DNA of 64,000 bases from Lachnospiraceae bacterium (lineage in GTDB: Bacteria; Bacillota; Clostridia; Lachnospirales; Lachnospiraceae): assembly GCA_017550535.1 (NCBI GenBank), contig JAFZOS010000042.1, forward strand, positions 50,248-114,247. Reading direction: 5' to 3'. Made by a program: the position numbers and the translations under genes. Of this stretch, positions 42,449-42,743 are shown in pieces (the first letter of the stretch is position 1; the number at the start of each line of letters is the position of its first letter). The notes below the pieces were generated by a model. The model ran no database searches and was not told the origin of the DNA. It saw only the letters and a list, made by a program, of their open reading frames with translations.

Positions 42449-42477
42449 TTGACATAAGAGAAACAAGGATTTATTAT
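42449..42477 (+). promoter_or_regulatory. Near-consensus sigma-A promoter with no ORF behind it (candidate antitoxin sRNA promoter)
   Basis: TTGACA (42449..42454) - 17 nt - TATTAT (42472..42477). Confidence 0.6.
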
Positions 42478-42483
42478 GATATT

Positions 42484-42552
42484 GCATATAAGATGTTATG
42501 ATTTTGATGGCAAAGCGAAAGCTCAGGTATTGCCGTACCTGAGCTTTCTTGC
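42484..42552 (+). ncRNA. Candidate ~65-70-nt antisense sRNA (RNA II-like antitoxin)
   Basis: It runs from the predicted TSS after the 42472 -10 box to the 42518..42547 hairpin. Its nt 42490..42511 are 20/22 identical to the + strand at 42654..42675. That makes the region complementary to the translation initiation region of the minus-strand peptide mRNA. No plausible ORF is present. Confidence 0.5.
42518..42547. terminator. Shared (bidirectional) hairpin terminator between convergent sRNA and peptide gene
   Basis: AAAGCTCAGGTA-ttgccg-TACCTGAGCTTT is a perfect 12-bp stem with A/T tracts built into both arm ends. The downstream tails are moderately U-rich on both strands. Confidence 0.55.
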
Positions 42553-42588
42553 AGTTATAGACTGCATGTGTCTAGGCTGTGCTGTGGT

Positions 42589-42681
42589 CTAATCTTCATC
42601 CAGCCATTTGCAGATATAGTAGGCGGCTATACCTGCCACGATGGAGATCATTAAAGATGTGATGATTTCGATGGCTATCAC
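42589..42681 (-). CDS. Small hydrophobic peptide, Fst/Ldr-like type I toxin candidate (20-30 aa, start codon uncertain)
   Basis: The in-frame reading is GTG ATA GCC ATC GAA ATC ATC ACA TCT TTA ATG ... TAG, giving (M)IAIEIITSLMISIVAGIAAYYICKWLDED. The SD AGGAAGGAGG (42690..42681) abuts the GTG. Alternative in-frame starts are ATC 42672 (8-nt spacing) and ATG 42651. The peptide is one TM helix plus a KWLDED tail. Confidence 0.5.
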   Translation of the reverse strand: MIAIEIITSLMISIVAGIAAYYICKWLDED

Positions 42682-42714
42682 CTCCTTCCTGCCGGAAGGT
42701 ATCACAGCAGCCTG

Positions 42715-42743
42715 ATTATAGCACAAATGTTCGATTGAAGCAA
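42715..42743 (-). promoter_or_regulatory. Promoter of the small peptide gene
   Basis: Minus-strand TTGCTT (42743..42738) - 17 nt - TGcTATAAT (-10 at 42720..42715). The predicted 5' UTR hairpin CCTTCC-ggca-GGAAGG (42699..42684) occludes part of the SD. Confidence 0.55.

Follow-up and report, generated by a model that had tools for sequence, protein, structure and literature searches.

The window analysed here is a 64,000-nucleotide stretch of a Lachnospiraceae bacterium genome (assembly GCA_017550535.1, contig JAFZOS010000042.1, positions 50,248 to 114,247). Within it, between a gene for an HK-REC-GGDEF protein and valS, lies a segment of about 300 bp (42449..42743) that holds two convergent promoters, a short open reading frame (ORF) on the minus strand, a perfect hairpin and, beyond the hairpin, a second copy of the sequence surrounding the start of the ORF. 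A sequence-only reading of the window had proposed that these parts form a type I toxin–antitoxin module resembling par of plasmid pAD1, in which the toxin mRNA (RNA I, encoding Fst) is paired with an antitoxin small RNA (sRNA, RNA II). Everything that it listed was found, either where it had been placed or 1–5 nt away (Table 1), and the window contains just one copy of the module. On the basis of comparisons with related loci from plasmids and genomes, we consider it very probable that the segment is a chromosomal par/Fst-like module inserted between the two genes.

Table 1. Features of the putative toxin–antitoxin module (positions are those of the window)
Feature	Position	Strand	Description
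Antitoxin sRNA promoter	42449..42477	+	TTGACA-17-TATTAT, 11/12; sole strong plus-strand promoter-like site in 42000..43200
Predicted antitoxin sRNA (RNA II analogue)	42484..42555	+	about 70 nt; promoter -10 ends at 42477, terminator at 42548; ends predicted
Repeat copy B, sRNA 5' part	42485..42511	+	complement of copy A in the mRNA from the opposite strand
Predicted toxin mRNA (RNA I analogue)	42507..42708	-	about 200 nt; from about 7 nt past the -10 to the shared terminator; ends predicted
Shared bidirectional terminator	42517..42548	both	perfect 13-bp stem 42517-42529/42536-42548, 6-nt loop; A/T-rich stem base gives T runs on both strands
Toxin ORF by homology	42589..42672	-	ATC start 42672..42670, 27 codons (M)EIITSLMISIVAGIAAYYICKWLDED, stop TAG 42591..42589
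Repeat copy A, mRNA target site	42649..42675	-	from 3 nt upstream of the ATC through the internal ATG 42651..42649
Extended Shine-Dalgarno AAGGAGGTGAT	42677..42687	-	core GGAGG 42685..42681
5' stem-loop CCTTCC-GGCA-GGAAGG	42684..42699	-	CCTTCC 42699..42694, GGAAGG 42689..42684; pairs part of the Shine-Dalgarno region
Toxin-mRNA promoter	42715..42743	-	-35 TTGCTT 42743..42738, 17-nt spacer, extended -10 TGcTATAAT (TG 42723..42722, TATAAT 42720..42715)

The two strands are tied together by the direct repeat. The sequence-only reading described it as 22 nt long with 20 identities; that core stands, while the full repeat (42485-42511 versus 42649-42675) extends over 27 nt at 85% identity. The repeat exceeds chance: its local-alignment score is 19, whereas 1,900 shuffles of the downstream sequence have their 99th percentile at 12 and peak at 16.5. 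The predicted duplex between sRNA and mRNA over 42676..42648, a check that the same reading had called for, has an energy of -31.8 kcal/mol; with the 5' part of the sRNA shuffled the value is -15.5 +/- 2.7 kcal/mol (z about -6). A further direct repeat, D2 (42549-42560 / 42608-42619), was considered as a second site of interaction and rejected, both of its copies lying in one RNA.

Co-conservation of the two repeat copies in related genomes had been named in advance as a test of the proposal. To the module of the window we added 94 further modules from plasmids and genomes, giving a sample of 95; 16 plasmid loci and the genome loci L017-L096 were read directly, the latter stemming from a scan of one genome per species with a pattern built from a seven-sequence alignment. 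The initiation region of each module was scored against its own downstream region and against those of the other loci. The mean score is 17.5 within loci and 8.5 between them, compared to a shuffle background of 8.1, and the top-scoring partner among the 95 is the module's own in 79 loci. Across the family the repeat spans mRNA positions -9 to +22, counted from the start, and a dip at +5/+6 separates two blocks (-8 to +4 and +8 to +20); insertions and deletions occur between these blocks among modules, which makes a fixed pairing register unreliable. An sRNA promoter matching the consensus at 9 or more of 12 positions is present in 89 of 95 modules, its -10 typically ending 6–12 nt ahead of the repeat. 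In a multiple alignment the plus-strand promoter of the window, which the earlier reading had recognised as near-consensus, falls on the sRNA promoters of the other modules and hence belongs to the module rather than to valS.

The toxin-strand promoter proposed by the same reading (TTGCTT-17-TGcTATAAT) can likewise be read directly in the DNA. Its extended -10 is perfect and its -35 matches at 3 of 6 positions only, for which reason a promoter scan does not list it; it too aligns with the toxin promoters of related modules, 69 of 94 of which carry an extended -10 (TGn plus at least five of the six hexamer bases) at the same position. The SD (Shine-Dalgarno) sequence AAGGAGGTGAT aligns with GGAGGTG or GGGGGTG in all related modules. 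Downstream of it, the toxin frame runs to TAG 42591..42589 and encodes ...IEIITSLMISIVAGIAAYYICKWLDED, within a 97-aa mechanical ORF (42882..42589) in which, as the earlier reading had observed, the short frame is buried. That reading placed the start at GTG 42681, giving 30 codons (42681..42589). The peptide-coding frame holds, whereas the start does not: the homologous start is ATC 42672, and the mechanical ORF from GTG 42681 is three codons longer than the 27-codon ORF defined by homology. The GTG consists of the last G of GGAGG followed by TG, that is, the end of the extended SD, and GGAGGTG occurs also in relatives whose start is clearly downstream.

Evidence that the frame is translated comes from 89 distinct homologues. 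The entropy at codon positions 1, 2 and 3 is 0.65, 0.27 and 1.08 bits, respectively; I, L, K and D are retained through synonymous codons, and K-W-L-D is invariant. Ser occupies the first column of the helix motif in 82 of 89 sequences and is followed four residues on by Gly (54/89) or Ser (26/89). The ORF thus encodes a protein under purifying selection at the protein level.

The leader of the toxin mRNA is also structured. As proposed, a 5' hairpin covers part of the SD: CCTTCC-GGCA-GGAAGG overlaps the core GGAGG (42685..42681) both in the sequence and in the minimum free energy (MFE) fold. Across the family, GGAGG is accompanied by a CTCC-type anti-SD in 31 of 40 cases and GGGGG by a CCCC-type anti-SD in 38 of 42, and at least four of the five SD bases are paired in the MFE structures of 67 of 82 leaders. 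RNAalifold applied to a MAFFT alignment of 43 5' untranslated regions gave no consensus structure, because the alignment leaves the anti-SD out of register; sequestration was therefore assessed from folds of individual sequences and a contingency table of SD against anti-SD types. A long-range helix between the 5' end of the mRNA (GGCUGCUGUG) and a segment just past the stop (CACAGCACAGCC) reaches -17.7 kcal/mol in the window, and is weakly enriched family-wide (-11.3 kcal/mol within loci compared to -9.6 across loci; own partner in the best 10% in 26 of 90). Separately, a 12-nt inverted repeat (42524-42535 / 42624-42635, 92% complementary) links one arm and the loop of the terminator with the ORF codons GGT ATA GCC GCC, and through it the toxin mRNA could adopt a different long-range fold.

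The terminator hairpin sits between the stop of the ORF (42589) and repeat copy B. The earlier reading had it as a perfect 12-bp stem; it is perfect, and 13 bp long. The 55-nt stretch containing it folds at -22.6 kcal/mol, compared to a family median of -25 kcal/mol for the equivalent hairpin. A 38-codon plus-strand ORF (42476-42592) overlaps the predicted sRNA; its ATG lies within the -10 hexamer, and since this precedes the predicted transcription start its expression is unlikely.

How does this arrangement compare to known systems? Members of the Fst/Ldr superfamily have a transmembrane helix and a charged tail with a conserved Trp between the two, as well as a P/D/S/T-xxx-G motif; par loci are defined by convergent promoters, a bidirectional terminator, the DRa/DRb pair of direct repeats, plus helices in which the SD and the 5' end are sequestered (PMC7472228). 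The par sRNA is encoded 3' of the mRNA and clear of the ORF, and contacts its target outside the region of overlap (PMC8594479). Apart from the 5'-end helix, for which the family-wide enrichment given above is weak, the window agrees with these definitions feature by feature; it departs from the par pattern in the U-turn of the terminator loop. Its peptide, EIITSLMISIVAGIAAYYIC-K-W-LDED, has the superfamily layout of hydrophobic helix, Trp and charged C-terminus, and carries S-IVA-G as its P/D/S/T-xxx-G(C) helix motif. An abundance of Fst-like loci in Firmicutes is already on record, and the sequences of their direct repeats are poorly conserved from one par/Fst locus to another (PMC7472228).

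The likeness to par of pAD1 from Enterococcus faecalis is close. Both loci have convergent promoters, a shared bidirectional terminator and overlapping 3' ends; in both, complementarity beyond the overlap arises from direct repeats over the initiation region (the two family blocks recalling DRa and DRb), a 5' stem-loop covers the SD, and the RNAs, predicted ones in the window, are about 200 and 70 nt in length. Toxins of the Fst family and the peptide of the window share a length of about 30 aa, a transmembrane helix, S/P-xxx-G, a Trp at the end of the helix (Val in pAD1), L-D-E and a charged tail, with identical G-x8-W/V-L-D/E spacing. There are differences: Ser, a residue that the P/D/S/T-xxx-G definition admits, replaces the conserved Pro of PxxxG, which was essential in Fst(pAD1) and Lpt; the family of the window has a conserved YYICK motif ahead of the Trp; the terminator loop has no YUNR; the start is ATC instead of GUG or AUG; and the locus is chromosomal, in a Lachnospiraceae metagenome-assembled genome (MAG). 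SprA1/SprA1AS of Staphylococcus aureus, whose toxin PepA1 is an Fst homologue, also pairs outside the 3' overlap and encodes a membrane helix (PMC7472228, PMC8594479), but its RNAs differ in sequence from those of the window.

Two Fst loci annotated by NCBI on Lactococcus plasmids (WP_207186884.1 in L015 and WP_017370351.1 in L016) have the same order of parts as the window. Their repeat, which reaches from about -6 to +25 relative to the start, has its second copy past a GC-rich terminator, with ATTATA (TATAAT on the opposite strand) next; their peptides end in ...SRWLDKK with the Gly-to-Trp spacing of the window. Unlike the window, they have the canonical APxxxG and pass the NCBIfam cut-off, which the window family, with S(V/I)xA(G/S) and YYICKWLD, does not. 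Aligned as a profile by hhalign, 53 family peptides match a set of four Fst toxins (the two Lactococcus toxins, together with Fst-pAD1 and PepA1) with a probability of 97.1% and a score of 44.9 over 36 columns, against 11.4 for the reversed control and no more than 14.3 for 40 column-shuffled controls. The alignment places S-xxx-G on P-xxx-G and K-W-L-D on R-W/V-L-D, at equal Gly-to-Trp spacing. Sub-threshold matches to the Fst families were given by 5 of 16 and 2 of 53 family peptides (best E=7e-5), and weak matches to Ldr_toxin by 9 of 53. Nine of 16 also match NCBIfam NF047374, the type I toxins of Clostridioides difficile, over the transmembrane helix (best E=2.4e-5), far under its 60-bit cut-off. 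The toxins of that species are about 50 aa long, and their antitoxins are overlapping cis-antisense RNAs that are not known to have the repeat and terminator layout. Type I toxins in C. difficile are described in PMC5961336. Together, the co-variation of the repeat, purifying selection on the peptide, the profile alignment and the annotated Lactococcus loci of identical layout support the proposal of a type I module like par(pAD1)/Fst.

If this is correct, then the locus would be expected to work as follows. The extended -10 promoter would drive an mRNA of about 200 nt from the minus strand, encoding a single-helix membrane peptide of 27–30 aa with an S-xxx-G motif, a Trp at the end of the helix and an acidic tail, while the 5' hairpin would partly mask the SD of this mRNA. 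The convergent near-consensus promoter would yield a plus-strand sRNA of about 70 nt, and one bidirectional terminator would end both RNAs, leaving them with complementary 3' ends. By virtue of the direct repeat in the DNA, the first 29 or so nucleotides of the sRNA would in addition match, as complement, a stretch of the mRNA that opens shortly upstream of the start and closes at about codon 8, and pairing there would block initiation of translation. A drop in the sRNA would then allow the peptide to be made, with damage to the membrane as the likely outcome. We infer the transcripts and their ends, the toxicity of the peptide, the instability of the sRNA and any physiological role on the chromosome.

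Several observations weigh against this interpretation. An intrinsic-terminator scan did not call the hairpin at 42517..42548, which is accounted for by the T runs lying partly inside the base of the stem (GAAAGC...GCTTTC), and the YUNR U-turn motif is in neither terminator loop (CGGCAA in the mRNA, UUGCCG in the sRNA), a motif that is not universal among par loci (PMC7472228). The peptide of the window matches neither Pfam PF13955 Fst_toxin (cut-off 36 bits) nor NCBIfam NF033608 (26 bits), and its mRNA scores 41.5 bits with the Rfam family RF02442, discussed below, which is 0.5 below the gathering score of 42. The type I antitoxin families of Rfam gave nothing relevant on the plus strand at E<=10, a test of low power given that the annotated Fst loci L015 and L016 also lack a match at E<=0.01. 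Lastly, the module of the window is among only five of the 95 without ATG, TTG or GTG at a proper distance from the SD, and with ATC in that place the toxin may barely be translated.

The start codon gives rise to the alternative that survives best, to which we accord a real but minority chance: that the locus is an Fst/par homologue in which a change from ATG to ATC switched the toxin off, leaving a translationally silenced relic whose RNA pair or terminator cassette is decaying. Where relatives show ATG, TTG or GTG in the multiple alignment, the window has ATC, 8 nt past GGAGG, as against a canonical start at proper spacing in 90 of 95 modules (ATG 55, TTG 21, GTG 14). The nearest in-frame GTG abuts the SD with a spacing of 0, and other degenerate copies exist (L057 and L085:1662). 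Nonetheless, decay is not what the remainder of the locus suggests. The ORF is intact with all conserved residues (S-xxx-G, YYICKWLD and the acidic tail), as are both promoters, the hairpin and the terminator, and ATC is allowed as a weak initiator in translation table 11. Moreover, the repeat copy in the sRNA gene likewise reads ATC (GCCATCGAAATC / GCCATCAAAATC), so that pairing over the start has been retained after the change. Given ATC where relatives have ATG, TTG or GTG, we think that translation of the toxin is probably weak and the gene not dead; the mirrored ATC offers a case of how chromosomal copies of such modules may be attenuated.

The genomic setting bears on both the origin of the module and a second alternative. 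The GGDEF protein of the window is 100% identical to a protein of a Lachnospiraceae MAG. In relatives with orthologues of 62–92% identity, valS comes straight after the GGDEF gene, with a module-free spacer of 36–193 nt separating the two. The spacer of the closest relative holds a terminator hairpin, then TTGACA-17-CGATAAT, AAGGAG and ATG; a terminator with a TTGACA-17-GATAAT promoter is found in module-free spacers of relatives (L097 4058-4252, L099 4732-4854). Because the orthologous spacer of the closest relative lacks the module, it is a discrete insertion: a recent replacement of the spacer by about 300 bp, not part of a larger mobile element, in which the ancestral promoter of valS was replaced. 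It begins 5 nt past the GGDEF stop (42441-42443), at the -35 of the sRNA promoter. No terminator lies between this stop and the -35 at 42449, and the GGDEF mRNA would consequently enter the module and end at the shared terminator with antitoxin sequence in its 3' end.

For valS itself, which starts with GTG at 42777 behind an SD (GGGAGG, 42764-42769) unlike that of the relative, no usable sigma-70-like promoter was found between the terminator and the gene (the best candidate matches at 8 of 12 positions and is unusably placed), and an Rfam scan found no T-box ahead of it. The plus-strand promoter and hairpin could thus be taken for the promoter and leader attenuator of valS, with the repeat incidental; the site at 42449 is the only strong plus-strand promoter upstream of that gene, and relatives do have a valS promoter in this spacer. 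We regard this as most improbable. The unit of promoter, repeat and terminator adjoins the toxin gene in the 94 other modules, amid unrelated neighbours that include plasmids of 2–7 kb without valS; the sRNA promoters in these modules line up with this promoter; and the repeat co-varies with the initiation region of the toxin. A dual role is possible, the plus-strand promoter serving the antitoxin and, by read-through, valS.

Under the toxin–antitoxin interpretation, valS has an obvious candidate source of transcripts in read-through, either starting at the antitoxin promoter or coming out of the GGDEF gene. A stronger version, in which the ancestral terminator and valS promoter have been lost, the essential gene valS is expressed from transcripts that read through the terminator of the module (coming from the antitoxin promoter, the GGDEF gene or both) and the sRNA is in effect a prematurely terminated valS leader, strikes us as improbable but worth stating. 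If true, the 5' leader of valS would be antisense to the entire toxin mRNA, a selfish toxin–antitoxin cassette would have become wired into the expression of an aminoacyl-tRNA synthetase, and the weak ATC start, which the sRNA gene mirrors, could represent an adaptation by which the arrangement is rendered tolerable. The window in any case offers a clean natural example of a type I module of about 300 bp in a conserved spacer, where it took the place of a housekeeping gene's own promoter.

A third alternative comes from Rfam. In a permissive scan, RF02442 (SpF66_sRNA, from Streptococcus) matches the minus-strand RNA over its full length (42703..42507, model positions 1-239, E=7.1e-8), covering the 5' hairpin, the coding region (CAAAUGGCU, that is, K-W-L) and the terminator. 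Rfam types the family 'Gene; sRNA', without annotation as toxin or antitoxin, and the short ORF could on this ground be accidental and the RNA a non-coding regulator. We find this hardly credible: the third codon position is the most variable, conservation through synonymous codons points the same way, the SD stands at a fixed distance from a canonical start in 90 of 95 modules, and the Rfam consensus itself encodes, in frame, MSLILELVLTIIADVIAGIILYFVCKWLDGKE, which is plainly homologous to the peptide of the window. The codon-position entropies together with synonymous conservation exclude a purely non-coding RNA and, since its consensus encodes a homologue of this peptide, RF02442 is the toxin mRNA, listed under the non-coding label SpF66. 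Plasmid homologues from Lactobacillales (L009, L014, L010, L011, L006 and L004) pass the cut-off with 49–94 bits (maximum 93.8), whereas the window and the other Clostridia copies fall under it, at 30–41.5 bits. On one of these homologues, a Streptococcus plasmid locus (L006 368-530), RefB11 (Enterococcus sRNA B11) scores 37 bits against a cut-off of 54; this family, too, may represent a toxin mRNA that has been classed as an sRNA. A plus-strand match of the window to Atu_C9 (42439-42547), an sRNA family of Rhizobiales, was rejected: at 25.4 bits against a cut-off of 40, and mainly over the terminator, it is probably due to chance.

Least credible of all is a gene for a secreted bacteriocin-like or holin-like peptide, as hinted at by sub-threshold matches to the lactococcin G-alpha family (E=0.02) and LydA holin (E=0.009): these lie far below the curated cut-offs and are of the kind that hydrophobic helices typically give, a leader peptide is absent, as are genes for immunity, transport or lysis in the neighbourhood, and a convergent sRNA with a co-varying repeat is foreign to such systems.

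The locus is, then, an unannotated but ordinary member of the known Fst/par family, and lies within a large and coherent branch that is itself under-annotated. A tblastn search with the peptide of the window returned 396 plasmid records, 331 of them from Enterococcus and 35 from Streptococcus, with further matches in Ligilactobacillus, Aerococcus and small gut-Clostridia plasmids; an annotated feature under the match is almost always missing. The genome scan gave at least 535 confirmed stretches among the 600 pattern matches listed, from which 80 loci were retained; among the matches listed Lachnospiraceae, Oscillospiraceae, Erysipelotrichaceae and Veillonella predominate, gut and rumen Clostridia being prominent. 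The order of parts is shared throughout. On the toxin side an extended -10 promoter is followed by the anti-SD hairpin, GGAGGTG or GGGGGTG, 7–9 nt and the start codon; the ORF has 26–39 codons and ends in ..YYICKWLD plus a charged tail; past it come a strong GC hairpin with a T run, the copy of the initiation region and, on the opposite strand, TATAAT and TTGACA-like hexamers. The branch consensus peptide is M-E-x-x-x-S-F-x-x-S-V-x-A-G-V-x-A-Y-Y-I-C-K-W-L-D.

Plasmids of Enterococcus faecium provide an example. The 37-aa homologue MKILFDFVFAIMAEVAAHYICKWLDCKFAKKDSKPTR (L004, NZ_CP096212.1 187045-187128), which starts with TTG, has the complete layout of sRNA, repeat and terminator, and adjoins ssb on large conjugative plasmids; in databases it is a 'hypothetical protein' or is not called. 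When ten family peptides were sought as exact entries in a collection of 15 billion proteins, eight were absent, one was unnamed and the enterococcal one was a 'hypothetical protein'. Other searches were equally sparse: a protein word-index search with the peptide padded to 40 aa gave no match; a search of plasmids with the DNA of the whole module matched no more than 56 nt of the ORF, in a Waltera plasmid, and so revealed no close relative; phage records contained a few weak peptide matches and PHROGs one weak match to a family of unknown function; a profile search of PDB returned chance matches only (E 0.7-1.3); and the string CKWLD was not found in the biological literature searched. Current tools thus miss the YYICKWLD branch, which falls short of the Pfam and NCBIfam cut-offs and carries a non-coding label in Rfam; a dedicated peptide profile (hidden Markov model) and covariance model would close the gap.

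Among the genome loci, modules occur in pairs 300–800 nt apart in L020 (1557, 1881), L022 (1172, 1560), L068 (752, 1560), L076 (1560, 1971) and L085 (1368, 1662), the copy at L085:1662 being a truncated remnant of its pair. Two further copies appear decayed: L059 (about 1560) has lost its stop codon and runs on as a 122-codon frame, and L057 (about 1557) has an in-frame TGA right before the ORF and no start codon. The surroundings of the loci L017-L096 are not symmetrical. Past the sRNA promoter, the long open frame that comes nearest points the same way as the sRNA at 54 loci and the opposite way at 21, while the toxin-promoter side has no clear bias in orientation (39 versus 30). The skew of 54 to 21 suggests that upstream read-through, by which additional toxin mRNA would be produced, is selected against.

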